64,000 nucleotides of DNA from contig NC_086097.1 of assembly GCF_963921235.1 (NCBI RefSeq), forward strand, positions 66,900,001 through 66,964,000. Reading direction: 5' to 3'. Positions 2,318 through 63,736 of this stretch are shown piece after piece. Below the pieces are notes generated by a model, which was given only the letters and a program-made list of their open reading frames with translations, searched no databases and had not been told where the DNA came from. The first letter of the stretch is position 1, and each line of letters starts with the position of its first letter. Origin of the DNA: Mobula hypostoma. Its lineage: Eukaryota. A program made the position numbers and the translations under genes.

Positions 2318-2450
2318 TTCCAAAGGAAGTTGTTCAGCAAAATTATCCATTTGCTGAAGGCAATAATCAACCATAGAACTGTGATCATTAACATCACTGC
2401 CTCGTTAAATTCTACATGCCTGATTCTTTCCAAGGTGAAAATGACGATAT
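2318..2450 (-). other. Candidate exon of the downstream minus-strand gene, possibly the first coding exon (MVDYCLQQMDNFAEQLPLE from ATG 2374)
   Basis: Non-repeat island bounded by tatag| and GAA|gtaggg; weak splice sites; identity not recognisable from the peptide. Confidence 0.3.
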
Positions 2451-2937
2451 CTATATATCACAAGTTATTTCTAATAATGAACATGGGATGACACCTATTC
2501 AAAAGTTAACTACATTTCATATTCTTTTGTCAGAGATCCATAGATGGTGATACGTTAGGATTTTGCTGTGACTGCAGTCTTTCCCATGAGCTAAGTGCAG
2601 TTGACTGCAACTCAGAAAGGTCCTTTGTAAACAACAACCACTCTTAAGTTATTTTTTGAAATCTGTTTGAAGCATAGATTGCTATGAAAGCCCACATGCC
2701 ATTTTGCACCTTGTAGTGCATGATGAGAACAGTTTAAACTTGCTTAAATTAAGCTGACCTTTCTCAACTGGATTTCCATTGCTGGACACAGCTGATGTCT
2801 GCACTACGTGAGACTATGTAAGTTGCAATAATGGCTATTTACACCAGGGGTCCCCAACCTTTTCTGCACCGCGGACCGGTTTAATATTGACAATATTCTT
2901 GCGGACCAGACGACCTGGGGTGGGGGAGGTGTTCGAG

Positions 2938-4342
2938 TAGGGTTAAATTCACCTCAACATGTCTTTTACAGTTAAGGTTGCCAACTTTCTCACTCCCAAA
3001 TAAGGGACAAAAGTAGCAGTCAAATCCTGGGACAATTCACCTCAGGAAAGACTACCATGACCATGAAGCCTTGCGCGGGCACCTGTGTGCGCATGCGTGA
3101 TGTGCGCATGCACGTACCTGCCGATTTTTTCCCCCACACATCGGTTTTCCCTTCATCTTCCCGACTATACTGTACATACATTATTTCCACTTTATATAGG
3201 CTGTGTATTTATTGTGACGAGAATACACATAAATTAAGATGTTTGCTGGCCTGGGCTAGCATCAGTGGCATCAACAGTTGGTCTGCCACCTGTCCTCAGG
3301 GGAAGGAGAGATAAGGAACAATGAAGCAGCATCTGGAGATGTGTAATGAAGGGACGGGAGAGACAGCTGTCTGGAGCGGCTCCCCCTTTGAACCCTGAAC
3401 TGTTTGAAGTGATGGACAGACGATACCCCAGCAGGGGGATAAAAAGGGACAGGTTCACTAAGGCAGGACACACGACACCCGAGGTAACGAGACCCTGGAA
3501 GTGGTGCGCCTCTCAAGAGTCGGTGGGAAGTACCGGACCTTAAACACACAGGGTGGAAAGGTACGATCAGCGGGAACCCGGTGTGTGTCCACCCTCGCTT
3601 GGGTGCCGGGTTCACTGCAGAGGATCGACCGCATCTGGAGGAGGGGTCACAGTCGGTGACCTCAGGTGACATCACAAAGGACCCGCCTGAAAGCTGCTTA
3701 TGAGCAATATCGTCGGTCTGTGAGTGGAAGCCGTTTTGAATGATCAGTCGTTCCCGTTCTCTCTCTCCACCCCCCCACGTTGTCCATCGTCATGGCAACG
3801 ATTACTGCGCACTGAACTAAATTGGACTGAACTTTGTGTCACTTTGAAATTGGTCATTTACCCCTAGACAACGATAGAGCTTGATTGATGCTGTTATCTT
3901 AATTCTGTGCACATGTGTGTTTATCATTGCTGAACTGTTGCATTTATTATCCTTTCGATTATTGTGTTGCTTGTTTCTTCAATAAAACTTTCTTAGTTCT
4001 AGTAATTCAGGCTCCAACTGAGTGATCCATTTCTGCTGGTTTGGCAACCCAGTTACGGGGTACGTAACATTATCATATCATTCCTGCTTTTACTATATGT
4101 TTGTGTTATTTATTTTCAGTTTTATGTGCTATTTGGTATGATTTGTTAGGTTATTTTTTGGGTCTGGGAACGCACAAAAATTTTTCCCATATAAATTAAT
4201 GGTAATTGCTTCTTCACTTCACGCCATTTCGGCACGAAAGGTTTCATAGGAACGCTCTACCTTAGCAGGGGAAATACGGGACAAACCAATTTAGCCCAAT
4301 ATACGGGATGTCCCGGCAAATACAGGACAGTTGGCAAACCTA
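2938..4342. mobile_element. hAT (Blackjack-like) non-autonomous element nested in the Charlie MITE
   Basis: Termini tagggtt... / ...gttggcaaaccta; 8-bp TSD tgttcgag (2930-2937) / tgttcaag (4343-4350); absent from the empty copy at 30200. Confidence 0.8.
3213..4069 (+). mobile_element. Solo LTR (Gypsy- or ERV-type)
   Basis: TGTGACG...CGTAACA termini; exact 4-bp TSD ttat/ttat; AATAAA at 3981; no internal coding region. Confidence 0.88.
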
Positions 4343-5619: not shown

Positions 5620-6580
5620 TCTGGCTAACTAGTGGGGTACCACAGAGATCAGTGATGGATCTTCAACTATTTTTCATGCACACTTATGATTTGGAATGAA
5701 GGGACCCAGTGCAATGTGGCTAAATTTTCTGAAGATACAAAGACAGGTGGGGTTAGCAAATTGTGAGAAGGATACTAAAAACCTACAAAAGAATACAGAT
5801 AAGTTAAATAAATTGGTGAGAATTTGGCAGATGGAGTAAATAGTGGAAAATGCAAAGTTATTCACTTTGGAAGTAAGAATGAAAGGCAAATTTTGAGACC
5901 TCAGTGTTCTGGGCACCTCAAGCAAGTGCAGCACAAGAAATTAAAAGGCATGAGCACAAATAATTAGGAAAACTAAGGAAATGTTAGCTTTTATTGCAAG
6001 ATTCATAAATTATAAATCTATAGGCAGTTTTGATGAACCTTACACATCAACAGTAATGTATAGCTTTAGTCTCCGTATTTAAAAATTGACAACTAAGCTC
6101 TGAAGGAAGTGAAGATTCTGAAGAGATTAACATACAAAGCAGGGATGAGCAGATTGAATCAACACACACTGGAGTTTAGAAAAAGAAATAATGATCCTAT
6201 ACATCAGATTCTTAAAGGGATTGACAAGGTGGCTACTTGAAGGATGTTTCAACCAGATGGATTATCTGAAACAAGGTGGCATAGTTTCAGAATAAGGATT
6301 TGTTCATTTGAAACCCTTCTCTGAAGCTGACACAAGGAATTCTGCAGATGCTGGAAATTCAAGCAAAACACATCAAAATTGCTGGTGAACGCAGCAGCAA
6401 CTAGAGATGCTGCCTGGCCTGCTGTGTTCACCAGCAACTTTGATGTCTGAAGCTGACACTTGTTTGGAATGTAGTATCCCAGAAAATTATGGAAGTTGAA
6501 TGAAGTATGGGAGTCAGAATCAAAACGGTTTTGAGGCTAATATTAGATCAGCCATGATCTTTTCAAATAGATGAGCAGGT
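5620..6580 (+). mobile_element. Old degraded CR1 3' fragment
   Basis: Remnants of the SGVPQGSV and KFADDTK motifs; CR1-like 3' end gatcagccatgatct. Confidence 0.7.
6334..6445. mobile_element. Mini fold-back Penelope-derived insertion
   Basis: Inverted pLTR-end pieces; 14-bp TSD tctgaagctgacac (6320-6333 / 6446-6459). Confidence 0.85.
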
Positions 6581-7309
6581 TGAAGGGGTGATTGGAGAAC
6601 TCAAGCTGAGAGACCAAAAGCCAGGGGCTTATAGCATACGCTACATTTGAAAGGGATCACCAACTTATTTAATATATTCAAAAATAATTAAAATAAAGCG
6701 AAAATATGTACAGTATGTTAAATAAACTTATTACAGTGATTATTTTAATTTTGATTACTTATGTCTTCACCATCATAGGTACTAAAGGACTGCAAGGATG
6801 ACCTGGGGACTCAGATTCTACCACCTGAAGTCTGCCTGTAATTTATGGGTGAGGATCTCCTGCACGGGTACCACAAAAATCAAGGATGGGAGGCCTGGGT
6901 GTGGTTCAGGCATGATTCTCCCAATAAAGTTTACACACATTCATAACTCAATTTTTGTCTACAAGTTAGAAAATACACAAAAATAATTTGATGTAACCAT
7001 ACTTCCACAGTATTGTAATGAGTGACATCAGAGTCACACAAAGATTGATTAGAAAGAATAACTAAAAGTGGAGAAAAAGATTTAACAATTTCTGCCAATC
7101 GCAGGAACAAGCATATGTGTGTCTGTTTCATCTCTGAATTTAATAATATTGTAGGAGTTTATTCTAACATAGAGGTGTCCATGAATCGGCCATTCATAAT
7201 CCAGTGACAGCTTGAAATGGCAGACAACCGAAGTTTTGTCTCAGTTTCACATAGACTTAGCTCTGTTCTGCAAAAACATGTTTGTTAGTAAATTGAAATT
7301 TCTACTCAC

Positions 7310-7455
7310 CTGAGACTTCAAATGGAAATATCTTATTAAACAACTGTAACCTGTTGGGAATTTCCTTTTCTAAACTTGCTCTGGCCAAGAAGTGTATTAT
7401 TTTTATTCCATGCCGCTTTTGTTGATTCACAGATGAGCATAAGCCAATGTTCATC
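7310..7455 (-). other. Candidate internal 5' exon of the downstream minus-strand gene
   Basis: Strong donor CAG|gtgagt at 7310; weak acceptor tgtag|; non-repetitive sequence. Confidence 0.3.
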
Positions 7456-8459
7456 CTACATTTTATAAGTTTTTATATCAAACATAGCAGTACAAGCCCT
7501 TATTCTTTAGCACATGTTCATTTAGTTGATTGGCAAACATTGTCCTTGAAATGTTTATAATTTGTTTTCACAAGGAAGATACAGCACAAAAACAAGTCGG
7601 TCATTCCAACCCCACTGCGCCACTATTCAACTCCATTCAACCCTTCTGTGATCCTTTCTTATAACCCTAACACTCTTCCACATGGCAGTCTAAGTTGTCT
7701 TTCAATGTGTCTGCATTATCTGCCTCAAGTAGCCTTTGTGGGAGAGTTCAATATTTTCATCATCTGCCAAATCGCCTTTCTTCCAAGAGGAACAATTCAA
7801 ACTTCTTCAGTCTAATCTTGGAGCTGAAGTCCCCCATCCACAGATACATTCAATTGAATCTTTCTGCACCTTCTCTATGATCTTCACTTCCATCCAAAAA
7901 TATGGATACAATACTCCATTTGTGACCCAGACACCAAATTCACCATAACTTCTCTACTTTTCTTCTCTAATGCCTTTCTGAGGTGTGGAATCCTATCTAA
8001 GTAAAAACTGCTTTGTCACTTTCATATATTTTTAAATGAGCATACTAAGTAAATAAACATGTACATTTTTAAAAAATCTTTTAGTCTATACAAGTCCACA
8101 ATCACTTATCCAAAATCCTTGGGGCCAGTAGCATTTTGGAACTCAGAATTTTTCAGATTTCAAAATCCCTCCTTATTGGTTCCGGGACCCCCCTGCAGAT
8201 ACCAAAAAACACACATGCTCAAGTCACTTATTTAACCTGTCTCAGTACGGGTGGACTGTAGGACCCAGCGAGCTCCGGACATATGCACATCCTCCTGTAT
8301 ACTTTAAATCATCTCTAGATTACTTGTAATACCTAATACAAAGTAAATACTATGTAAATACAAACAACAGGAATTCTGCAGATGCTGGAAATTCAAGCAA
8401 CATACATCAAAGTTGCTGGTGAACGCAGCAGGCCAGGCAGCATCTATAGGAAGAGGCGC

Positions 8460-11409: not shown

Positions 11410-12565
11410 TTAGAACATAAGAAATAGAAATAGGAGTAGGCCAGTAGGCCACTTGGCCTGATGAGCCTGCTGTGATATTGAATAAAATCATGGCTGATCC
11501 AGCATTGGTCTCAGCTCCACCCACCTGCATTTTCATCATAACCCCAAATTCCCCTGCTATGCAAAAATCTATTTAACTGCGTCTTAAAATATATTTAATG
11601 AGGTAGCTTCTGCTGCATCTCCGGCCAGAAAAAAATCCACTATTCACTGCTCTCTAGGAAAAGCAGTTTCTCATCTCTGTCCAAATTTTATTTCCCCAAA
11701 ACTTGAGACTATATCTGTTATTACTAGTCTTACCAACCAGTAGAAACATCTTTACTGCCTCTACCTTATGTATCCCTTTCCTAATGTTTATGTTTCTATA
11801 ATAATCCATTTGGCTCCTTCATAACCTTCTGCACTTGCAAACCAACCTTATATTGACAATATAAGCTCTAAGGAGCTGAATGATGAGTTCATCTAGGTAC
11901 AGGGAAAAAAATCACTAGTGGGAGTTACCTATACGTCACTGAATAATAACATTATAGTGGCATGGCCAATAAAACAAGACATAACCCAATGAATCTGATG
12001 CATGTAAGAGTCTATAGGTCACTGAATAATGACACAGTGGCCTGGGCAATAAAGTAAGAAATAACCTGATTTATGTAGGAATGGAACAACATTTGTCATG
12101 GGGGATTTTAAGTTACACGTAGATTGGGTGAAGTTGTTCAAAGCAGTCATGAGGACTTCATAGGATGTATCCATGTTAGCTTTCTTGAACAACTGCTAAT
12201 GAATCTACACAAGGAAAAATGCTATCTGGCCCTGTGCAATGATACAAGTAAAAGTAATGATCTTGTAGTTACAGATCCTCTTGTAAAGAGTGATCACAGT
12301 AAGTCTGAACTTCTCATAAAAATGGATGGTTCAACAGTTTGATATAAAACCAGTATATAATGCCTAAACAAGGGAGTCTACAATGAGATGAGGAAGAAGT
12401 TGGCCAGCACAGACTGGCAACACAGACTGTATGGTGGAACAGTGGAATACTTTTGAAAAAGTTTTTCACCATGCTCAAAAAAAGTATATTCCAGTTAAAA
12501 GCTAGGACAGTAAGGATGGAGAGAGCCAGCCTTGGATAACTAAGGAAATAAAAGAAGGCATCAAT
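11410..12565. mobile_element. Old CR1 fragments (minus-strand 3' end ~11410-11830; plus-strand endonuclease remnants ~11860-12565)
   Basis: CR1 3' UTR motif and degraded ORF2 remnants. Confidence 0.6.
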
Positions 12566-35460: not shown

Positions 35461-36474
35461 ATTTTTTAATTCAGGAGGAGGGCTGGGCATGGGGATAGCA
35501 ACCCTATCCCATAAAAAAAAGTGCTACAAGAATGTCAACAGAAGTTCTAAAACCTCATCCCTGGGAGAGGAAGGATACACCAAGAAGATGGGTTACACCT
35601 GGAGACAACATGAAGGACTGGCCCAGCTCATAGAAGTCTGGTGAGCTACTGTCCGCTGTCTATGCCCCAGTAGTGGTGATTGGGCTTAAGTAAGTTCACT
35701 TTCAGACCAATTCTTGTGGAGGGCTGAAGTTGAAGGCCAAGGAACAAGGTCCGTGGCAGGGACTGAAAAGAATACCTATGGTTTGCTCACTATTTTATTG
35801 GGAGAAATTTTATTTTTCATCTTGTCCTGGATGTCAAACGTACCGCTTAACAACTTAAAGGTGGTGGGGGGGTAGAAATCAGAAAGAATGAAGTAGAGAT
35901 GCATCTAATATAGGAAGCCTGAGGTTTTTCAAATAATGTTGCCAAGAAATAGAGGGGTTAATAAAGCACTATTGGGAGACACTACATCCTCTTGTACTAG
36001 TGTACCAAGCAGTCTTTAACTGGAAAGACAAGGATAGGAAAAGCTTCATGTGATCCCATCCAGATGGACTTAGAAAAGCAATGGAGTCATCTAATCAAAT
36101 CTACAATGAACTGCAGACAGGTCAAAAAGGATTTTTTAAAAAAGTAGTCACAAATGATAAAGAATTTCACTCATGATTCATTAGCCATTTTGGTAGTATT
36201 CCAGTTGTGGAAACTCAAAAAAGTCAAAGAAATTCTTCAACATTTGGAAACAAATGACTCCACCACAAAAAATAAACTTGAGTTGAAACCTTGTCAATTC
36301 AACTTCAGTACAAAATTAGATGCAGAACCAAACTTTCCTGATATTTAAGTCAAACCCATTTAATATATGTCTATTAAACAATGTTCTGTATTAGTAAATC
36401 TGAATAGGTCTTTGTAATAAAATGCCATGCAGAAAAATTAGCACTTATTTATAAAACAGAATTCAGAGCACTTA

Positions 36475-37007
<533 letters not shown>

Positions 37008-46499: not shown

Positions 46500-47188
46500 T
46501 CATACATTCACTGTCAAATTGATCTTTATGTAAATTTAAACCCAAATTAATACCAAAAGGGTATGGGGAGACAGCTGGAGAATGGGGTAGAGAGGGAAAA
46601 TAAATCAATCATGATTGAATGGCAGAGCAGACTGGATGGGCTGGATGGCCTGCTTCTGCTCCAATGTCTTATGGTCAAATGCAGATATTCATGGGTCCCT
46701 CTCAAATAGCAGTATGAATAACACAAAGGCGAATAAAAACGCTCAATAAAAACAAATGGGCATTAACTTCAGCCCTTTATGATATGACAATCAAGAGGAG
46801 CACAACCTTGTCATAGAGTTTGGAGGCTTGCATGCCTCAATGACCCAGAGAGCTATGTTGGCTGGAGTCAGGGCCTTGTGTTTTAACTCTTGATAGTGTC
46901 ACCCATGTCAACCAAACAGATCAAAGGGTAAAGGCCAGATTAAGAGTGGTGCACTGGTCCGCAAGGTTTGGGGTTCAGCACAGGACTAACAACCCTGACT
47001 GGTCAAAGATTGTTACAAAAACAGCAATAAAGAATCCTTCTACATCTGTGTGTGACTGGGGAGCCTGAAGCACGCCAGGGGCACAATTGATAAGATGGTC
47101 AAGGACATAGATGGTGGACCTTCATTGCTGCCCTAAACGCCAGCAGTGTAACAGCCAAAAACCAACTAAAGTTAAAGATTGTTACTTA

Positions 47189-47281
<93 letters not shown>

Positions 47282-48536
47282 CTAAGAGTGAAATATATTT
47301 TAATGTTATACAAGTTACAGTTTTCTTATCCCACCACTATTCACTAAAATTGTAAGCTTCTGGTTCAGTTTGCCTTATTTTGTCATTAGCACAAACAATT
47401 AATCACCCAGCAGTAATTCCAAACTTCAAAACCTATTTCTCATTGCATAATGAAAAATACTGATCCCAATCACCATTTCCTCACCTACACCTGAGACAGG
47501 AGCAACATCATCAGGATGAGGACTATGCCAGAGGCCTCAACTCACATAATACTACGCGTTTCCAACAAAAAAAAGTTTTCAATTGTGGCTTTTCCATTTG
47601 GATAAGCAAAACACAAAACTCTTTTAAAAAGCAAAATATCTTAGATAATATAGTTACTACATATATGGGAAATCAGATATATTGAAAAGGATCTGTTGTT
47701 AATAAATGATCTAATCAAATGTTTCCAGAACAAACATGTCAATCAAATCCAGAACCCAGTTTAATTTGAGCAATACATCAATATTTATTTTTAATTATAC
47801 CATATTAAAGAGTCAAAGTTTCTAGTACTGAACAAAAGGTCAACTTTTGGCAATGGCAAATATAATTGTGACAGCTAGTAATAGCTATTTCAAAGTTAAT
47901 ATAACAACTCATTGTATGGCAACTCATGTAGCTCTGGGAGCCAAATTGTCTGGATTAAAATTAGAAAATGAAATTTAAAGTATTCTATAGTTAGAATTGC
48001 ATTTTGCTCGTGCCCTCCAGAGATGACTTAAAGAGGATGATCACAGACAGGAAAGTACAATGTGTTGGTGATGAGCCAAAAAGAACTTTACTGAATGGAA
48101 TTTGACAAGATGGAACAAAATGCAAGTAGAAATTAGTGAGATGACAAAATATAACATATTGGAACCTATAGACATAGTAATCTGTAGCCAAAAGCAAAAT
48201 GCTGGAGGAATTCAGCAGATCAGTTTTGGAGGGTGGGGAGAGAGGGGAGAATTTCAATCAGGTCCACTGCCCAAGGGTAAAAGGCAACAGTGGGTTGCTA
48301 CAGCAAAAAAAGAGCTTTCACCAGCAACCAGTTAGTGCTTGGGATTGATCAGTAAGAGCAAATTAAAAGAAGGCAGGGGCAAGCGCACCGGCCATCATCG
48401 CAGCAGCCATTGTCTGAGTGGACGTGGTCAGAGGGGTGTTCTTGAGGCTTTAGCTCTTTGAGGCTTCGACGAAGAGAGGCTTCACTCAGAGAAAACAAAA
48501 GAAAAAAAAAGCTTAAGTTCTTTTTCCTTCTCTTCT

Positions 48537-49206
48537 TGTAAGCCTCAGGGTCGCTCAACTCACTGTCGTCTAGGGGGAGCAGCCTTCGGCCCCGCCAAAC
48601 TGGGTAACTAAGTTTGTGTGGATGCTGTGTGATGTACCCCACCCCGCCAAATAACAGACAAAACACCAGATACGATTAAATGATTACAATTTATAGATAT
48701 TACTGGTAATATATAATTAATAGATAAAATATAAAAGGAAAATAAAAGGCGCCAAACTTATCAAAGTTCAATCCCTTCGTGCACAAACAGTTGGAGCTCT
48801 GGTAACGATCCTCTCTTCACCATTCGATCCCCTCTGACCACTTCAACCCGCCGCCTGGGAGCAACCACAGTGGTCAACCAGACGCTCCACACGAGTCTGT
48901 CTCCATCTCCTCTCCTCGCCAAAGACCCTGGACCTCAGACTCCTGCTCGGGGTCTGACCCTGTTAGCCAGCTCACAGGTGCACCGTATCCACTCTCTCTC
49001 TCCCCATTGCACCTTCTGCCCCAAAACCCCACGCATCACAATAGCTTACAGAAAGAATAACATCTATCCCAATTGGTTCGTTCACTCTCTTATCAATAAT
49101 ATAACCCAAACAAGCTGTTAGCGAGAGAACTTTCTCAGCAGTTAACATAACAAAGAAGCCATTTTAATTAGCCTACGCAGTAACATAAAAAAAGAAACCC
49201 CTTACA
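48537..49206 (-). repeat. 3' LTR of the Gypsy element (outer ~12 bp missing)
   Basis: Direct repeat of 52163-52833; the PPT abuts 49207. Confidence 0.92.
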
Positions 49207-49699
49207 CTCTCCCCCAACCAATAAAGTCATGTCCTCTTGACTTCTAAATAACTCCCCAACCATTCCTGCAGACACAAAAACCCAATCCAGGTACAAACAG
49301 TGACATTGCTTCCCAAACAGTTATGCCTGGTCCCATGGGCGCTACATAGACCAACCTATCTGGGAGTTTCCTAATCCTCCGAGACCTCCGTACCCTCCTC
49401 ACCTAAACCCTTAAGGCTCGGGCACTACGGGGCATACCTCGGGTCGGCTTGCCAAATCCTCTCTCAACCTCTCACTCATGCCTCCACTGCAACTCGGAGC
49501 CCCCTGTCCCGTGTCCGGGGCCCCGGTTCTTTGCCTTCCGGATCCTGCTGTAACCCAGGCTGCCCACAGCTAGCCCTCCCCACTACCCTAACTCAGTGGG
49601 AGAAGGGCTAAAAGTCTCTTCCTCAATCAAGGGGAAGTTAGAGAAAGGCAGCATGCACCACATGTCCAGCACATCATCCTTCAAATCCGTATTCTTTAT

Positions 49700-50545
49700 C
49701 ATTTCCTCGATCGATAGCTGCTGTGTGATTTTCTCCAAACTGAAGCACTCGGCCTGGACTGCTTCTGCAGCCTCTTCAGCCTCCTGTAATCGAGATGACA
49801 GCTTCTTCTTGGACTCCTCCAATTCTCGCCATAGTCTCAGCAGCTCTGACTCATGCTTCTTGGCCATCTCAATCTGGGACGCAATTACACCATCAGTTTC
49901 TTCCCCCCGACCGGAAAAGCAGAAGTTAAAGGATGCTCAGCCTCCAGTTTTTCCTTCCTGATGACTTCTTCCAGGTCAACTTTCAGTTTTCCACTTCACT
50001 TAAACGGTCGATGGTCATCTTCAGGTTCCCTTCAAGCATCCGCTTCCCTTTTCCGCGATCTGTCCTCGATTGCTTCACCTCCTCTGAAGTGTAGTCAAGC
50101 TCCCCTCCAGGCTCTCGGTCTTCTGTTGGCCTTAGTCAGACAGCTTCCTTGGTCTTCCCCAACTTTTAAGTCTTCCAATCTTTTCTGGATTAATTCATCA
50201 GTAAGTGGCCACAGTTTCTGCATGAAATTCAGGTTCTCTGTCTCCACGTTGACGAGAGTGGACTCTAAGTCTTCAAAGTTTGTTCCAAAAGTACGGCACT
50301 CAGTCTCCAGCCTGCATGTCTGAACACTCAGTTCAGCGGTGCAAATCCTCTCTCTCCCCAGTGTCTCATTCCAATTGATGACCTGGGTTTCCATCCCCAG
50401 GTCCACCATCGTCTGTTCCAACACCAGGAAGTTCAACTGGTATGTCGGGTCATTTTTCTCAGATTGCACCAAACTGCACCGGCCAAAAGCTACTCCACAT
50501 TTTACACTTCGCTTCGGTCGCTTTTCCCCAAACTGCCTCTTTCTC
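49700..50545 (-). pseudogene. Captured, intronless, internally deleted sarcomeric myosin heavy-chain rod fragment
   Basis: Collinear blocks [118 protein letters not shown]. Confidence 0.88.
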
Positions 50546-52129
50546 CAGACCTGACACTCGTCCAAAGAAAGTTTTAATTCTTTAATTCTTTGTCGCCCAG
50601 GCTTCGCCACTCGCCTTGCATCATAGTCCCCCAAGGCGAATCCAAACTCTTGGCGGTCATCCACATACGCCAAAACTCCGAACACCTCCACATCCCCCAT
50701 GGTCTTCCTCATGCCCCTCGGGAAGGTTGCAGGACCTCCGGATATGCCCTGGGGCATCTTTTCGGATCAAAAGAATCCTAGAGAACCTATAACAGCTGTC
50801 CTCTCCTTATCGGCCTCACTCATTGGGATCTCGCAACATCCACTCCTCAGATCCAGCACATTAAACCACGTCACACCATACAAACAGACCATAGTGTCTT
50901 CGGCCCTCAGGGCCTTATTCTGGTCGATTACAGTGCGCCTGTTCAGAGTCCTATAATCCACTCACACGCCGCCCACGTCTTCCATGGCTACAGGGTCCAG
51001 TCGCTGCACCCTCTCTCTCACCGTCTTCAGCAGTCAACTCCCCTCCCTCGTGGTATTTCGGAGCGTCTACCAAGAAGGTCTCACCGTCAGATACTTCCCC
51101 CAGACCGTACCACAATCGGGTCTCATTTAAATTCAGTACCAGCCCAAGGCTGCTACACACGTCCTCAGAAGCAGCTCAGAACACTGGGTGCCCAGACAAT
51201 GCCCCCATGAACTCCAGGGTCACTAACCAATCATCGTTTTCTGGATAATTACTTGCACTGGTACCCCAAATCTCCAGTGCCCTTAATGTTGTCAAGGGTA
51301 AATGCTTCAGACACCGGTTGTAAAACGAACTGTACAACAACTTGACCTGCGCCCCAGTATCAAGGATGGCTTTAGCATAGCTTCCATCTATCCGTAACGA
51401 CACACTGAGGCGTGGTCCCTCTAAGCCTTTAGGAACATGGTCTTTTCCTTTCGGAAGTTCCTTGGTACATTGCTGGGAACGCGCTCCCCGAGACCCCAAG
51501 CCGATCCCCCACTGGGCCTCCACCAAGTTTCCCGACACCTCTCTGATCAGCTGAACAACTGAAGGAGGGGCTGATCCCCTGAAATGATCCCCCTGGCACT
51601 GCAAGCAATCTAGCTGCCCTCCTAGCCAGAGAAGATACACTGAAAGCTTTTCCTCTGCTTTCAGATAACTGGCAGCTGTCACTACGGTGTAATTGAACCT
51701 GACAGTTCTAACACCATCAACAGCCCGCCTACTCAAACTTTCAACCAATCCGTCGCTCTCCCTCAACCAAGCACTCCCATCTAACAACTGAGAGATCCGC
51801 TCCGCCCATGTCTTCTATGCCTCCACCCCTTTAGGGGTGGACAATATCCCAAAAGCCAGGCGGAGCGTGCCATAGCTGGAACATTTATTCGCAGACACTA
51901 CCTACGAATCAGACCACTCTTTCCCCTCTCTCCTAATAGTATGAACAGCCCCTAGTCCCACCCCCAACTCATCAGCGCTAGTCTGAACTCGAACAAAGAC
52001 CTCACCCAACACGCATGCAGCAATAACCAGCAAATAACCCACAGAGACACACATCACTACGCACAATCCCACAGAGACACAGCAGCACTGATTTAAACAG
52101 GGCAACCATGCAGCACTCCACTGAATCCA

Positions 52130-52148
52130 ATCCCAGACAAAGCCCCCA
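52130..52148 (-). promoter_or_regulatory. Primer-binding site, tRNA-Pro-like
   Basis: Minus strand TGGGGGCTTTGTCTGGGAT versus the canonical Pro PBS TGGGGGCTCGTCCGGGAT; 2 nt from the LTR CA end. Confidence 0.8.
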
Positions 52149-52150
52149 AG

Positions 52151-52833
52151 TGTTGCCCCCCGGTAAGCCTCAGGGTCTCTCAACTCACTGTCGTCTAGGC
52201 GAAGCAGCCTTCGTCCCCGCCAAACTGGGTAGTTAAGTTTACGTGGATGCTGTGTGATGTACCCCACCCCACCAAATAACAGACAGAACACCAGATACGA
52301 TTAATTGATTACAATTTATAGATATTACTGGAACTATATAATTAATAGAGATAAACTATAAAAGGAAAATAAAAGGTGCCAAACTTATCAAAGTTCAATC
52401 TCTTTGTGAACAAACAGTTGGAGCTCTAGTAACGATCCTCTCTTCACCATTCAATCCCCTCTAACCACTTTGACCCGCCACCTGGGACCAACCACGGTGG
52501 TCGACCAGACGCTCCACATGAGTCTGTCTTCATCTCCCCTCCTTGCTGAAGACCCTGGACCTCGGACTCCAGCTTGGGGTCCAACCCCATTAGCCAGTCA
52601 CAGCACTGTGTCCACCCTCTCTCTCCCCATCGCGCCTTCTGCTCCAAAAACCCACGCATCACAATAGCTCACAGACACACAAGAAAGAATAACATCTATC
52701 CTAATTGGTTCGTTCGCTCTCTTATCAACAATATAACCCAAACAAGCTGCTAGCAAGAGAACTTTCTCAGCAGTTAACAAAGAAGCCATTTTAATTAGCC
52801 TACGCAGTAACATAAAAGAAGAAACCCCTTACA
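52151..52833 (-). repeat. 5' LTR of the Gypsy element
   Basis: Minus strand TGTAAGGGG...GGCAACA; followed by the PBS. Confidence 0.92.
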
Positions 52834-55800
52834 GACAATAGAGATGCCAGGCAAGATAGTGAAATGCTCTTCCTGCAGGATGTGTGAAGGCAGGGAGACC
52901 TCCAGCGTCCCTGACAACTACAATTGTGAGAAATGCATCCAGCTGCAACTTCTAACAAACCCCGTTGAGGCTGAGTGGGTGATAGGTAGGACATACAGGG
53001 AGGTAGTTACACACAAGGAGATAGACATAGGAACCTGGGTAACAGTCACGAAGGGGAAAGGGATTAAGGAGCCAGTGCAGAGTACCCCTGTGGCCATTCC
53101 TCTCAACAACAGACATATCATTTTAGATACTGTTGGGGGAGAATGACCCAGAGGAAAATCAAAGTGCTCGGGTCTCTGGGAATGAGTCTGCCTCTGTGAC
53201 TCAGAAGGAAAGGAGGGAGAAGAGTCACACTGTGGTGATAGGGGATTCATTAGTTAGGGAAACGAACAGGAGGTTCTGTGGGCGAAAACGAGATTCCCAG
53301 ATGGTACGTTGCCTCCCGGGTGTCAGGGTCCGGGATATCTCAGATCAAGTCCTCAACATTCTTAAGTGGGAGGGTGTACAGCCAGAAGTTGTGGTCCACG
53401 TAGGTACCAATGACATGGGTAGGACGAGTGACAAGGTTTGCATAGGGAGTTCAGGGAGTTAGGTACTAAGTTAAAGGGCAGAACCTCCAGGGTTATGATC
53501 TCAGGATTGCTATCTATGCCGTGTATTGGTGAGGACAGAACGAAAAAGATTATACAGTTTAATACGTGGCTAAGGAGTTGGTGTTGGGGGAGGACACAAG
53601 ATTTTTGGATCATTGGGCTCTCTTCCAGGGAAGGTGGGACCTGTACAGAAGGGATGGTTTACACCTGAACTGGAAGGGGACTAATATCCTAGTGAGAAGG
53701 TTTGTTAATGCTGCACAGTGAAGTTTAAACTAGAGTTGCAGTGGGATGGGAACCAGAGTGCCAGAACAGTTAGTGGAGAGGTTGTGGAAGCAGATGTTGG
53801 TTAAGGCCTCAGACAAAGTTAGGAATCAAACGGTTGAACATGGTGCAACTAGTGTCCTGCGCTGCGTATATTTCAACGCAAGAAATATCATAGAATTGGC
53901 AGATTATAGTGCTGAAGATGACCTTTATAAACATAGGCAATGTGTAGTGAGGAGAGGATGTTTATAGGGCAAAACTACAGTCAACAAGATGAGTTGTAAT
54001 GTAAAAGGCACACAAAATCGAAAAGGGTGAGTACAGGACTGAAGATGTTTCATTTGTATGCACGCAGTATACCGAATAAGGTAGTTGAACTTGCAGCACA
54101 GTTGCAGATGTTGTAGGCATCACTGAATCATGGTTGAAAGATTATAGCTGAGAGTTTAATGTCCAAGAATAAACATTGTATCGAAAGAACAAACAGGAAG
54201 GCAGAGGGCGCGGTGTTGCTCGGTTGGTAAAAAATGAATTCAAATCATTAGAAAGAGGTGACATATGGTCAGAAGGTGTTGAATCATTGTGGATAGAGGT
54301 AAAGAACTGCAAAGGTAAAAAGACCCTGAAGGGAGTTGCATACAGACCCCTAGACAGTAGTTAAGATGTGGCCTGCAAATTACAACAGGAGATAGAAAAT
54401 GCATGCCAAAAGAAAAATGTTACCATAGTCATGGGGAACTTCAATATGCAGGTAGATTGGGAAAAAATCAGGTTGATACTGGATTCCAGGAGGGGAAATT
54501 CAGGAGTGGATTCCAGGAGATGCTACAAATGCCCACTAGGGGATCAGCTATTCTGGAATAGGTGTTGTACAATGAACTAGAATTGATTAGAAATCTTAAG
54601 GTAAAGGAACCCTAAGGGGTAAGTGATGATAATATGATTGAATTCACCCTGAAATTTGAGAAGGAAAAGCTAAAGTCAGATGCATCAGTATTATAGTGAA
54701 ATAGAGGAAATTACAGGGGCATGAGAGACGAGTTAGCCAGAACTGATTGGAGAAGTACACTGGCAGGGATGATGGCAGAGCAGCAATGCCTGGAATTTCT
54801 AAAATGCAATTCGGAAGGTACAAGATACATAAATCCCAAAGAGGAAGTATTTGAAACGAAAGACTACACATCTGTGGCTAACAAGAGAAGTCAAAGTCAA
54901 CATAACAGCCAAAGAGAGGGCATATAATAGACCACAAGTCAATGGGAAGTTAGAGGTTTGGGAATCGTTTAAAAACCAACAGAAAGCAACCAAAAAGTCA
55001 TTAGATTATGAAGACACACAGTCCTCTTTTATTGTCATTTAGTAATGCATGCATTAAGAAATGATACAATATTTCCTCCGGTGTGATATCACAAAACACA
55101 GGACAGACCAAGATTGAAAAAAACTGACAAAACCACATAATTATAACATATAGTTACACAGTGCAACAATAGCATAACTTGATGAAGAAGTCCATGAGCA
55201 CAATAAAGTTCAAAGTTCCTCAACTAAGGAGGTAAAGATGGAATATGAAAGTAAGCTAGCCAATAATATTAAAGAGGATGCCAAGTTTCTTCAGATACAT
55301 AAAGTGTAAAAGAATCAAGAGTATGGTGGAAGTTCCAGGTGTCAAGGGTTATGAGTGCGTGAAGGCACCATAACTAGAGAGGTTCTTGGGTAACTCAAGG
55401 GTCTGAAGATAGATAAGTCACCTAGACTAGATGGTATACACCACAAAGTTCTGAAAGAGGTGGCTGAAGAGATCATGGAGGCATTAGTAATCTTTCAACA
55501 ATCACTAGATCCTATAGTGGCTCCAGAAAACTGGAAAATTGCAAATATCACTCCACTCAAGGAGAGAGGCAGAAGAAAGGAAACTATAGGCCAATTAGTC
55601 TGACCTCAGTGGTTGGGAAGGTGTTGGAGTCAATTACTAAAGATGAAGTCTCAGGGTACTGGGAGGCACATGATAAAATAGGCTGTAGTCAGTATGGTTT
55701 CCTCAAGGAAAAATCTTGCCTGACAGATCTGTTGGAATTCTTTGAAGAAATAACAAGCAGGATAGACACAGGGAAATCGACTGATGTCTGATGTTGTGTA

Positions 55801-57224
55801 CGTAGATATTCAGAAGTTCTTTGACAAGGTGCCACATGAGGCTACTTAACGAGCTACGAGCCCATGGTATTACAGGCAAGATTCTGGCATGGACAAAGCA
55901 GTGGCTGATTGGCAGGAGACAAAGAGTGGGAAGAAAGGGAGCCGTTTCTGGCTGGCTGCAATGACCAGTGGTGTTCCACAGGGGTCTTTATTGGGACCAA
56001 TTCTTTTTACGTTATATGTCAGTGATTTGGATGATGGAATTGATGGCTTTGTTGCAAAGTTTGCAGATGATATGAAGATAGGTGGAGGGGCAGGTAGTTT
56101 TGTGGAAGTAGAGAAGCTACAGAAGGACTTAGATTAGGAGACTGGGCAAAGAAATGGCAGGTGGAATACAGTAATAGGAAGTGTATGGTTATGCACTTTG
56201 GTAGAAGTTCTAAATGGAGAGAAAATACAAATAACTGAGGTGCAAAGGGACTTACGAGTTCTTGTGCAGGATTCCCTAAAGGTTAATTTGCAGGTTGAGT
56301 CAGTTGTGAGCAAGGCAAATGCAATGTTAGTATTCATTTCAAGAGACCTAGAATATAAAAGCAAGGATGAAATGTTGAAACTTTATAAAGCACTGGTGAG
56401 GCCTCACTTGGAGCATTGTGAGCTGGTTTGGGCACCTCACCTTAGAAAGGATGTGCTGAAACTAGAGAGAATTCAAAGGAGGTTCACAGAAATGATTCCA
56501 GGATTGAATAGCTTGTCATATGAAGCGCGTCTGATGGCTATGGCCTGTATTCACTGAAATTCAGAAGAATGAGGGGTGAAAGGCCTTGATAGAGTGGATA
56601 TGGAGAGGATACTTCCTAAGGTGAGAGAGTCTAAGACCAGAAGAGACAGCCACAGAACAGAGAGATGTCCTTTTAGAACAGAGATAAGGAGGAATTTCTG
56701 TAGCCGGAGTGGTGAATCTGTGTAATATTTTGCCACAGGCAGCTGTGGAGGCCATTTTTACGTACATTTAAGGCAGAGGTTGATAGATTTTTGATTGGTC
56801 AGGGATTGATGGGATATGGGGAGAAGGCAGAGATTGGGGCTGAGAAGAAAATTGGATCAGCCATGATGAAATGGCAAAGCAAACTCAATGGGCCAAATGG
56901 CCTAATTCTGCTCTATATCTTTTGGTCTTATGAGACAACATCTGTGGCACATAGAAGGTAAATTATGAATTCTTTAAAACTATGTCAGGAGACTGGACAT
57001 ATTCCCCCACTATGTTTTTACTAATTAAGGAATGTCCCAAATCTGTATTTTTTAAGTCATTAAACTTTAACAATCTTTTACAAAGGGGATGTACATAAAA
57101 GATGATTTAATCAATTAAGTATAGCAAGCAAATTATAGGAATAAGTCATTCTAATTTCAGCTCAACCGTAATTTGTGCTTGACACAATTCCAATCAATGA
57201 TAATTCTTTGTCCAACCACATATA

Positions 57225-58323
57225 CAGTGCCTTGAAAAAGTATTCAGCCCCCAAACCTTTGTTTACATAAATGAGAAGTACAACCAGGGAATTGGATCAT
57301 TTTAACTGATAAATTTTACTTTTAAATCACAATCCTTTTTTCACAGTAGTGCGAAAACAGGGGAAATTGTAAAGCATGAATAATTACAAATTAAAAATTA
57401 AAAAACTGAAATGTCAGCAATTCAAATGTATTCATACCCCTCTGCTCAGTACTTAGTTGAACCCCTTCCACTAAAAGAAAGGATATCCTTGCCCATTAAG
57501 ACTTTGCAAAGTGTCACCTAGAAGACACTGTAAGGACGTGGAAGAAGGTCTTGTCATCAGATGAGACTAAAGTGAAACTTTTTGGCCTCAACACTAAGCA
57601 GTACATATGCATACATCTAATACTGCACATCAGCCAAGTAACACTATCCCTTCTGTAAAGTATGGTGGAGGTAGTATCATGCTATGGGGATGCTTTTTAG
57701 CAGCAGGTACGGGAAATCTATAGGATTGATGAGAGGATGAATGCTGATAAAAACAGAAAGATCCTGGATTAAAAACCTGCTAGCCTATGCCAAAAAGCTT
57801 AAACTGGGGAAGAAGTTCTTTCAGCAGGGCAATGACCCAAAGCACACTGCCAGAGTAACCATGGAGTGGCTTCAAAATAAAGAAAATTGATGTCCTTGAG
57901 TGGCCCAGAGTCCTGTCATTAACCCAACTGAACATCTCTGGCACAACCTCAAGATTGCTGTTCAACGCAGTCCCCAACTAATCTGCACAGCTTGAGCAAT
58001 TTTGCAAGGAGGAATAGGCAAATCTTGCTACATCACGTAAAAGAGACTTATTCAAAAAGTCTACTGGTTGGAATAACTGTAAGAGGTGGTTCAACTAAGT
58101 ACTGTGCAAAGGGGGATGAATACTTTTGAACTGCTGACATTTCCGTTTTTGAATTTTTAGTTTTTCATGCTTTACAATTTTCCCTTTATTCGAGTTCCAC
58201 TATGAAAAAAGGATCATGTAATTCACAAATTATAACTCTCAGTTAAATTGATCAAAATCCATGGCTCTAATACTCATTTATGTGAATAAATGGTTGGGGC
58301 TGAATACTTTTTCTAAGGCGCTG
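57225..58323 (+). mobile_element. Tc1/mariner transposon, internally deleted, long (~230 bp) TIRs
   Basis: TA-cagtgccttgaaaaagtattcagcccc ... ggggctgaatactttttctaaggcgctg-TA; DDE remnants [34 protein letters not shown]. Confidence 0.93.
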
Positions 58324-58849
58324 TATATCAAAACTGGTTAAGTGCACTGTTATATTGAATATTTGGATTTTCAATAACTGAATTGTAAATATGGACAAAA
58401 GAAAAAAACATCTATAATCTATCCGTCTACATAATTTTATCTTTTTACAACTAAATTTATTACAATTTGGCAAAGCGATACCACAGGATGATCAAGTTGT
58501 CAGAGACAACCAGACTATTGCTCCAATTTTTTCCAACATTAAGTAATTCAAGGTACTGGTAGTAAGATATCTAAAGCTCATTATTAAAAAATGTGAAAAT
58601 ATTCCGGGTTTACAATGAACAACTACCTCAAATAAACACGACTTAACTTTTATAATGTACGCACTTCTTTCGACGACTTAAAATACTCTAATTAAAATTA
58701 GAGAAAATAGCTCTCAATTATCATGAGACAATAAATGGGGAAACATACGATATAGCGATTGTGATAACCTGATGCCTTTGGTAACGGTGTGACGTGTTTC
58801 AAACCACAGAAAAAATTCCAGACTTTACGTTTTCCGTAATCACAAGTTA

Positions 58850-59002
<153 letters not shown>

Positions 59003-59989: not shown

Positions 59990-60700
59990 GTGGAGGATCA
60001 GAGGGATCTTGGGGTCCGAGTCCATAGGACACACAAAGCAGCTGCGCAGGTTGACTCTGTGGTTAAGAAGGCATACGGTGTAATGGCCTTCATCAATCGT
60101 GGAATTGAATTTAAGAGCTGAGAGGTAATGTTGCAGCTATATAGGACCCTGGTCAGACCCCACTTGGAGTACTGTGCTCAGTTCTGGTCGCTTCACTACA
60201 GGAAGGATGTGGAAACCATAGAAAGAGTGCAGAGGAGATTTACAAGGATGTTGCCTGAACTAGGGAGCATGCCTTATGAGAGTAGGTTGAGTGAACTCGG
60301 CCTTTTCTCCTTGGAGTGACGGAGGATGAGAGGTGACCTGATAGAGGTGTATAAGATGATGAGAGGCATTGATCATGTGGATAGTCAGAGGCTTTTTCCC
60401 CAGGGCTGAAATGGTTGCTACAAGAGGACACAGGTTTAAGATGCTGGGGAGTAGGAACAGAGGAGATGTCGGGTAAGTTTTTTACTCAGAGGGTGGTGAA
60501 TGTGTGGAATGGTCTGCCAGCAACAGTGGTGGAGGTGGATATGATAGGGTCTTTTAAGAGACTTTTGGATAGATACGTGGAGCTTAGAAAAATAAAGGGC
60601 TATAGGTAAGCCTAGTAATTTCTAAGTTAGGGACATGCTTGGCACAACTTTGTGAGCCGAAGGGCCTGTATTGTGCTGTAGGTTTTCTATGGTTCTATGC
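59990..60700 (+). mobile_element. CR1 3' fragment
   Basis: LQLYRTLVRPHLEYCAQFWS...FFTQRVVNVWNGLP; tail ttctatggttctatg. Confidence 0.9.
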
Positions 60701-63106: not shown

Positions 63107-63548
63107 CTCTAAACCTTTTCTATTTGTGTACCTGGCTAAATGTCTTTTAATCTATAATTGTACTCACCTCTACCACTTCCTCTTGCAGTTTGTCCCAAAT
63201 ACCAACCATTCTCTCTGTGAAAAACTTACCTGTCAAAACTCGTACAACTTTTGTAAAATGAGCGATAAATAGGAGTTAGTAAAGAGCCTTGACCTTTATT
63301 TTTCTGTAGTTGTTGCATGTAATGCCATATCAGCTTTCACGCAATTTCTGTGAACAAGTCTTTATTAATCTGTTCCCAGAACATTATGTAAAGGATTTAA
63401 GAGAGACTTGAAGGTTTATGCAAGGCTACATGAGGTAAATGGCATCTTGATTGTAAAAGGTCATACCCATTATTTACAAGTAAACAAGTTCAGTTTTGAA
63501 TTTCAGGTGAGAGTCGCAATCAAACTAAAACCAATTGGCTTTACAATG

Positions 63549-63736
63549 ATCTCTAGGAAGAGGTACAGTCGATGTTTCAGGCTGGGACCCTTCGGCAGGA
63601 CTGTCCTGACGAAGGGTCCCGGCCTGAAACGTTGACTGTACCTCTTCCTAGAGATGCTGCCTGACCTGCTGTGTTCACCAGCAACTTTGATGTGTGTTGC
63701 TTGAATTTCCAGCATCTGCAGAATTCCTCGTGTTTG
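63549..63736. mobile_element. Mini fold-back Penelope insertion with back-to-back hammerhead motifs
   Basis: Inversion centred at ~63600 (caggactgtcctg); 13-bp TSD tggctttacaatg; plus-strand core CTGACGA...GAAACGTT. Confidence 0.9.

Follow-up and report, generated by a model that had tools for sequence, protein, structure and literature searches.

Acute transforming retroviruses carry a captured segment of host messenger RNA (v-onc) and depend on helpers, and retrotransposons of plants with long terminal repeats (LTRs), for example Bs1 of maize, contain captured gene fragments. The locus described here lies in a 64,000-nucleotide window of the Mobula hypostoma genome (RefSeq assembly GCF_963921235.1, contig NC_086097.1, positions 66,900,001 to 66,964,000 of the forward strand). 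It is very probably an old and no longer active member of a non-autonomous family of Ty3/Gypsy LTR retrotransposons, in which a spliced insert from the myosin heavy-chain gene MYH16 replaces integrase. Like v-onc retroviruses, the ray element holds spliced mRNA sequence in sense orientation inside an LTR pair, where it replaces part of the element's own coding sequence in an in-frame fusion and leaves the element dependent on helpers. Unlike them, its backbone is a Ty3/Gypsy retrotransposon, fixed in the germ line in hundreds of copies, and its cargo is a fragment of a structural coiled coil with no sign of selection on the protein sequence. It resembles the plant elements as a non-autonomous LTR element that carries and amplifies pieces of host genes between its LTRs but differs in being a vertebrate case, with a single large spliced insert that replaces integrase approximately length for length within the pol frame.

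Endogenous retroviruses (ERVs) of crocodilians captured the mRNAs of KIT-ligand and nectin3; in the nectin3 case the mRNA took the place of one of the element's genes, and retrotransposition then spread the hybrid, which related species share (PMC4299795). These ERVs have few copies (six nectin3 insertions are named), and their captured open reading frames (ORFs) are reported to be under purifying selection (PMC4299795). Both cases involve a host mRNA captured by a vertebrate LTR element, with a hybrid that multiplied and is found in several related species, but the ray family has at least 448 copies, has lost integrase to the insert and shows neutral amino-acid evolution. Bdelloid rotifer LTR retrotransposons are reported to carry extra captured ORFs and to be otherwise autonomous (PMC5408684). 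They too are animal Gypsy-like elements acquiring foreign coding sequence; the ray family differs in that a core enzyme was replaced rather than an ORF added. That LTR retroelements can capture host mRNAs is already established, and the ray family adds a further case. A literature search, with repeat databases outside its scope, returned no paper describing this ray family or a retrotransposon that had captured MYH16 or another myosin.

Anatomy of the element and its insert

The domain map of the window was obtained by aligning to it the proteins of L067 (C76:3019400-3027400), an apparently intact autonomous Gypsy relative in the same genome. L067 contains two long frames of 1,065 and 1,327 aa with one stop between them, which encode, in order and all well above Pfam cut-offs, PNMA-gag, zf-CCHC, RVT_1, RT_RNaseH, Integrase_H2C2 and rve, with integrase placed after RT, unlike in Copia elements. 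The window aligns to L067 in the Gypsy order of protease (PR), reverse transcriptase (RT) and RNase H, with integrase absent: residues 135-731 of L067 ORF2, which comprise the rest of RNase H and the whole integrase, have no match in the window, and no integrase homology was found in any of the 45 copies examined in total. The window lineage has kept its cis signals (LTRs, primer binding site and polypurine tract) and has additionally lost the RT thumb and most of RNase H. With integrase gone and the cis signals retained, the family is a non-autonomous LTR element.

The place of integrase is taken by about 704 nt (49697-50400, minus strand, as for all features of the element) of MYH16-derived, intron-free myosin rod cDNA with internal deletions. 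The exchange can be followed in L062, one of two copies studied from an early-branching, less deleted subfamily. Here pol homology ends at residue 199 of L067 ORF2, the end of RNase H; myosin homology begins 8 codons farther on, at the first residue of a host exon; and pol homology resumes at residue 732 beyond the insert. Since pol breaks off at 199 and resumes at 732, the founder possessed an entire RT-RNase H and had lost integrase. About 532 residues (approximately 200-731 of the relative's ORF2) were exchanged for about 533 residues of myosin rod (approximately 888-1420). The window copy falls in a more heavily deleted subfamily; since the founder, this subfamily has been stripped of the RT thumb, of most of RNase H, of ~20 codons at the start of the myosin and of three blocks within it.

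A first-pass annotation of the window had proposed a gag remnant, protease, RT, a foreign stretch and a pol-like tail in that order, and the L067 alignment bears this out. The foreign stretch had been given as about 850 nt, in the place of RNase H and the integrase core. Its myosin likeness and the loss of integrase stand; the stretch is shorter, and RNase H is partly present at 50401-50493, with 48% identity to L067 ORF2 104-134 and 78% nucleotide identity to the RNase H ORF of the less deleted copy L061, which reaches 44 bits on Pfam RT_RNaseH. The supposed first myosin block, SLVQSEKND, falls in this remnant and is RNase H. The ORF described as running from RT into the foreign sequence does exist (stop to stop 50095-50766, minus, 223 aa) and leads from RT motifs into the insert, with the fusion to the RNase H remnant and not directly to RT.

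The LTR pair consists of a 5' LTR of 671 bp (52163-52833), with TG...CA ends and direct-repeat families D1-D5, and a 3' LTR of 669 bp (48538-49206); alignments of other copies stop at window 48535-48541. Both have TG...CA ends; 660 bases could be aligned between them, with 46 transitions and 13 transversions (Kimura two-parameter distance 0.097), and together with the domains aligned to L067 they uphold the Gypsy element with paired LTRs that had been proposed. Directly upstream of the 3' LTR is the purine-rich polypurine tract (49207-49219), also as proposed. The Pro-type primer binding site of the first-pass annotation is a decayed 19-mer in the window (52130-52148, about 14 nt downstream of the 5' LTR end). 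The comparison used an 18-base motif of tRNA-Pro type; an ungapped scan of the window with it gave 0 matches at up to 3 mismatches, the site containing an indel, and copy L020 has all 18 bases of the motif at the site homologous to 52130-52148.

The gag remnant, a PNMA-like capsid region at 51425-51868, was located by tblastn with residues 188-372 of L067 ORF1 (E 0.001); it has a large internal deletion and keeps a zinc-knuckle remnant. On Pfam, the L067 gag scores 119.7 bits for PNMA and also matches zf-CCHC, and copy L066 scores 24.4 bits for PNMA against a cut-off of 25. The protease region (51209-51542) is 58-68% identical to L067 ORF1 457-568 (E 1e-26), and its aspartyl protease motif is located in the window ORF 51176-51814. 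RT fingers and palm, up to and past YVDD, occupy 50551-50961 (56% identity to L067 ORF1 878-1014, E 3e-40), with one frameshift or stop near 50767. In the window ORFs, Pfam RVP (14.8 bits versus a cut-off of 20.7, E 0.037) and RVT_1 (13.5 versus 29.6, E 0.058) remain below cut-off because this copy is decayed and deleted; RVT_1 is passed by copy L062 (46.4 bits). The C-terminal pol tail, which in the relative lies downstream of the integrase region, spans 49221-49696. Its homology to L067 is at 49586-49696, where window ORF residues 81-117 match ORF2 732-768 (E 3e-5; the same match in L062, E 2e-7), and 49221-49585 is assigned to the tail by position and conservation among copies only. This stretch just past the myosin part was also considered as a further myosin exon, which was rejected since it matches the L067 pol C-terminal region.

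The element is inside an 11.6-kb intron of SRP54, in the same orientation as the gene, as the first-pass annotation had it. The intron lies between coding exons 58847-58933, which we take to belong to SRP54, and 47186-47281; a further minus-strand exon is at 36472-36878. Other mobile-element remnants in the intron (52844-53700, 55400-56560, 57600-57900 and 60128-60610) were identified by eye from ORF translations as LINE-type (long interspersed nuclear element) reverse-transcriptase fragments and a Tc1/mariner-like transposase fragment. A short interspersed repeat at 63503-63715 (minus) recurs beside L066 and within L061, where it separates RT from RNase H; this repeat is probably of SINE-like (short interspersed nuclear element) type in the M. 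hypostoma genome.

Source of the myosin sequence and route of capture

The insert is related to the rod of sarcomeric myosins. Window ORFs are collinear with the human MYH7 rod in a phmmer search of PDB (residues 913-983, E 0.003; 1147-1180; 1371-1428, E 8e-8), the best match being to a solved MYH7 1361-1425 fragment (E 9e-11). With the 367-aa open frame of copy L009 as query, all 28 long database matches among 7,515 candidates were sarcomeric myosin heavy chains. Block by block, scores were highest to a myosin-16-like protein (P0002), in whose coordinates the window blocks lie at approximately 907-975, 996-1083, 1143-1174 and 1381-1420. The less deleted copies L061 (on C5) and L062 (on C91) align without gaps to P0002 882-1109, 228 residues, at 49% and 46% identity (E 5e-51 and 1e-47). 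Two of the four block matches quoted in the first-pass annotation were wrong, SLVQSEKND for the reason given above and SLEGSL because it was read in a frame unused by the family, where MYH16 differs in sequence; the collinearity with the sarcomeric myosin rod that they were meant to illustrate is borne out by MYH7 and P0002.

In a maximum-likelihood paralogue tree (20 rows, 228 columns, six element rows), the inserts group with three MYH16-type proteins and the host gene on C36 at 100/100, against 10 other rows, and stand apart from the fast-skeletal, MYH7 and MYH7B rows. A resemblance to MYH16 had been noted, with the paralogue left open, in the first-pass annotation; judging from the tree and the block scores, the donor paralogue is of MYH16 type, a masticatory-type sarcomeric myosin. 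A tblastn comparison of a family ORF with 30 Pfam myosin-tail loci gave no match; these loci comprise non-muscle myosin genes and one intron-free non-muscle pseudogene and are therefore the wrong comparison set. In C68:15310219-15892978, a single large sarcomeric rod exon is matched at least 9 times within 0.6 Mb, at 62-67% identity to the myosin-16-like query, which looks like a tandem array of sarcomeric myosin heavy-chain genes.

The host MYH16-like gene is at C36:112716000-112735000 (minus). Its rod exons, mapped with P0002, have limits at residues ~887, 965, 998, 1028, 1075, 1155, 1237, 1274, 1384 and 1428 and are separated by introns of 0.7-1.9 kb. L061 and L062 are continuous over the junctions at 887/888, 965, 998, 1028 and 1075, and five introns are absent. 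The window copy is continuous over 965, 1028, 1075 and 1155, as it is across the junction at ~49876, and it lacks the 1.3-kb intron at 1155. Because the copies cross host exon junctions without introns, the insert came from spliced mRNA, in keeping with the first-pass claim of several exons spanned and no introns; among the 45 copies, no remnant of a MYH16 intron was seen. At window ~49809-49812, host position 11880, in mid-exon, is joined to 16656, the start of the exon five exons on. Both sides of this join encode the same short acidic motif; it is a later deletion between short repeats in the cDNA and not a splice. At its 3' limit the insert passes from within a rod exon, at approximately P0002 residue 1420, straight into pol; it has neither poly(A) nor the 3' terminus of an mRNA. 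Its orientation is sense, and its reading frame continues that of pol at either end.

Several observations weigh against the capture of MYH16 mRNA by a Gypsy element as set out here. No target-site duplication is visible in the LTR flanks of the window copy; a duplication of 4-6 bp may have decayed, given the 9.7% LTR divergence. Pfam Myosin_tail_1 is far under its cut-off (13.8 bits versus 38.1), with profile positions 121-291 matched collinearly. L067, at about 70% nucleotide identity to the family, is a relative that need not be the actual helper. Three sequencing runs guessed to be RNA contain family contigs, including an exact 334-nt contig (50432-50765), but these say nothing firm on expression, since the RNA label was guessed and the copy is within an SRP54 intron. 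Nucleotide identity between copies and host exons is 69-79% in the best blocks only (75-79% for the window). In the tree, the true MYH16 rows (host, whale and teleost) form their own clade (96/90), with the inserts sister to it rather than beside the host gene; the insert branch is very long (0.63), so that long-branch effects are likely; and the Ciona outgroup row represents a stretch of rod that is not homologous to the others, which leaves only the unrooted split to be trusted.

Given the position of the inserts next to the MYH16 clade as its long-branched sister, the tree does not fix the donor lineage, and the capture could have taken place in another lineage, followed by horizontal transfer into rays, with a donor other than the rays' own MYH16. 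The placement outside the host, whale and teleost clade and the low identity to host exons are what such a transfer would produce. However, a basal placement is also the expected artefact for an unconstrained branch of that length, the backbone has close autonomous relatives in the same genome, and the occurrence in two ray families with shared derived junctions fits vertical descent; we consider a transfer improbable. The low identity to host exons indicates that the capture is old.

An ordinary LINE-made processed myosin pseudogene could also have landed in Gypsy fragments, or later been flanked by them, with nothing transduced. Intron-free myosin fragments do exist outside the family: at C18:48745314-48746731 (L031) there is an intron-free non-muscle myosin II rod of more than 470 residues with 6 stops, which covers Pfam myosin-tail positions 514-993, has no blastn match to the element within 1.5-kb flanks and has the appearance of a plain processed pseudogene that does not belong to the family. 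However, all 29 of the other loci retrieved first have the two pol-myosin junctions of the window copy; they lie on many contigs and align to the window element across both junctions inside an LTR pair. A 30-mer spanning the RNase H-myosin junction, searched with up to 3 mismatches, occurs at 448 sites (224 per strand), against 0 for the reversed control. The same junctions recur in other ray genera, and a pseudogene would not be expected to be internal to the mRNA and in frame with pol on both sides. This explanation is very unlikely, and the retrovirus-style transduction layout and the LTR family spreading myosin sequence, both put forward in the first-pass annotation, are borne out by the dispersed copies.

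A third possibility, that the element natively encodes a coiled coil whose generic heptads give convergent matches to myosin, could draw on the weak and mixed coiled-coil matches in Pfam (Spc29, CdvA and Myosin_tail_1, 12-14 bits) and on the two spurious motif matches noted above, but it has next to no plausibility given the gapless 228-residue alignment, the 100/100 grouping with MYH16, the lack of a match to non-muscle myosin exons of the same genome, the 75-79% nucleotide matches that begin exactly at host exon starts, and the integrase, not a coiled coil, at that place in L067. DNA-level capture of genomic MYH16 by recombination or gene conversion, for which no supporting evidence was found, is likewise scarcely credible, as the five host introns within P0002 882-1109 and the 1.3-kb intron at 1155 are absent from the copies.

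In the founder, a stretch of spliced MYH16 mRNA replaced the integrase part of pol, in sense and in frame. Presumably element RNA and MYH16 mRNA were packaged together, and the exchange took place by copy-choice as they were reverse transcribed. Another possible beginning is a read-through transcript of an element residing in a MYH16 intron upstream of the start exon of the insert, in which a splice donor where RNase H ends was joined to the exon acceptor, with one template switch restoring the 3' end. The position of the 5' limit of the insert, within 8 codons of a host exon start, hints at such a spliced chimera, which we regard as a real but minority possibility for the first step. Having kept its LTRs, primer binding site, polypurine tract and packaging region, the hybrid could then have been copied in trans by the proteins of related autonomous Gypsy elements, and it amplified to at least several hundred copies. 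Internal deletions at short repeats during this spread took away the RT thumb together with most of RNase H and pieces of the myosin, giving rise to the subfamilies. Candidate helpers are abundant and seemingly intact in the genome: an RNase H query gave 188,434 first-look candidates, and the 150 scored include relatives 61-73% identical, in open frames of up to 1,714 aa. Within L067 itself, positions 6320-8001 at the 3' end of pol form a tandem array with a period of about 84 bp and units 92-96% identical, which is open in all three frames and lengthens the pol frame by hundreds of residues.

Subfamilies and the open frame

A genome search with the myosin segment gave 54 matches (1,338 first-look candidates, 40 scored), and 12 of 12 copies picked by the junction 30-mer alone have the same build and belong to one subfamily. 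A tree of 33 copies resolves four subfamilies and a copy that stands by itself (L024); its bursts are star-like, and end branches measure 0.03-0.07. L014 and L017 (C96:15371045-15371960 and C96:15641533-15642448) are 270 kb apart in opposite orientation with end branches of 0.005-0.006, which suggests that an inverted segmental duplication occurred recently, and not that the element transposed twice. Nested insertions are present in the tail of L022 (positions 2436-3401, a LINE-type RT frame) and in L023 (~2330-3680, an unrelated 1.3-kb insert), and a different, better preserved Gypsy RT is located just upstream of the family copy in L029 (positions 410-1312).

The myosin and pol sequences appear to evolve without protein-level constraint. 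The comparison of nonsynonymous and synonymous rates (dN/dS) among copies suggested by the first-pass annotation was run pairwise, and the real frame (0.62-0.68) is level with the two shifted frames (0.63-0.70), in PR-RT and myosin alike. Codon-position bias is also absent, both in fixed differences between subfamilies (87/101/80 at the three positions, P 0.28) and in private substitutions (155/148/157). With no protein-level selection in either measure, the possibility that the coiled coil was kept for its function was dropped.

Stop codons, in contrast, are distributed as if the frame itself mattered in the lineages that spread. From 268 differences between subfamilies, 10.6 fixed stops would be expected (3.9%) and 1 was seen (P(≤1) ~3e-4), which lies in the two-copy subfamily D; private substitutions create stops at the neutral rate (16 of 460, or 3.5%, versus 3.9% expected). 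Among the 24 copies of subfamily C there are 36 stop columns, none of them common to more than 4 copies, and the 12 copies picked by the junction 30-mer have 0-4 stops per 320-660 codons, a load compatible with neutral decay of copies whose master was intact. The longest open frames reach 716 aa (L066) and 677 aa (L073). Because changes between subfamilies almost never make stops, active lineages must have maintained a single long open frame.

Insertions and deletions follow a similar pattern. Of 13 indels common to at least 4 copies, 7 are in frame (3, 9, 27, 60, 75, 78 and 159 bp) and 6 are of 1-2 bp, two of the latter forming a compensating pair and one being in effect a private insertion in the reference copy. 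All six shared indels of at least 9 bp are multiples of three, whereas private indels comprise 95 that shift the frame and 23 that do not. A deletion between repeats of an amino-acid motif necessarily preserves the frame, and the 60-bp deletion, at least, looks recurrent, so this indel evidence is worth less than its nominal probability.

These patterns could mean that master lineages were selected only for an uninterrupted frame, from the gag remnant through myosin to the pol tail, and not for its product, with the MYH16 rod serving as in-frame filler. We put this forward tentatively, at somewhat short of an even chance. An open frame would let ribosomes read nearly the whole genomic RNA, and the readings we favor are that it allows escape from nonsense-mediated decay or translation-coupled packaging by helper proteins. 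Maintenance of an open frame without protein constraint is possibly a new property of the ray family.

Occurrence among rays and implications

The family is not confined to M. hypostoma. With the family frame as query, all 12 protein matches of similar length among 4,708 candidates came from rays: Mobula birostris (5), M. hypostoma (4), Hypanus sabinus (2) and Hemitrygon akajei (1). Identity to subfamily C copies is 77-86% for the proteins of M. birostris. Those of Hypanus, at 59-69% identity, have the same internal deletion junctions and the same 3' junction, and some Mobula and Hypanus proteins have yet another deletion junction from RNase H to myosin. In the Hemitrygon model, a family fragment seems to have been joined to unrelated exons. 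Since predicted proteins of Mobula, Hypanus and Hemitrygon have the family's junctions, the family spans at least two families of myliobatiform rays, in three genera.

Annotation of ray genomes is affected by this. Proteins P0032, P0035, P0037, P0039 and P0040, from H. sabinus, M. hypostoma and H. akajei, are family products named as MYH16 or myosin heavy chain-like, with public names in Mobula and Hypanus such as "putative uncharacterized protein MYH16" and "myosin heavy chain, striated muscle-like". Unless the family is masked, ray genomes will seem to have more myosin genes than they do. The junctions, on the other hand, are discrete markers that could be used for dating and for batoid phylogeny.

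As an instance of a vertebrate Gypsy-type element capturing host mRNA, the ray family is clear-cut and exceptionally successful, with hundreds of copies in at least three genera and two families of rays. Intermediate forms persist, so the order of events is readable, with integrase replaced first and deletions following stepwise. If true, the open-frame requirement would be a constraint not described for non-autonomous retroelements, and it would link retroelement evolution to RNA surveillance. The copies are a natural experiment on what a helper-dependent retroelement must keep, and our data suggest that this is an open frame and not a protein.

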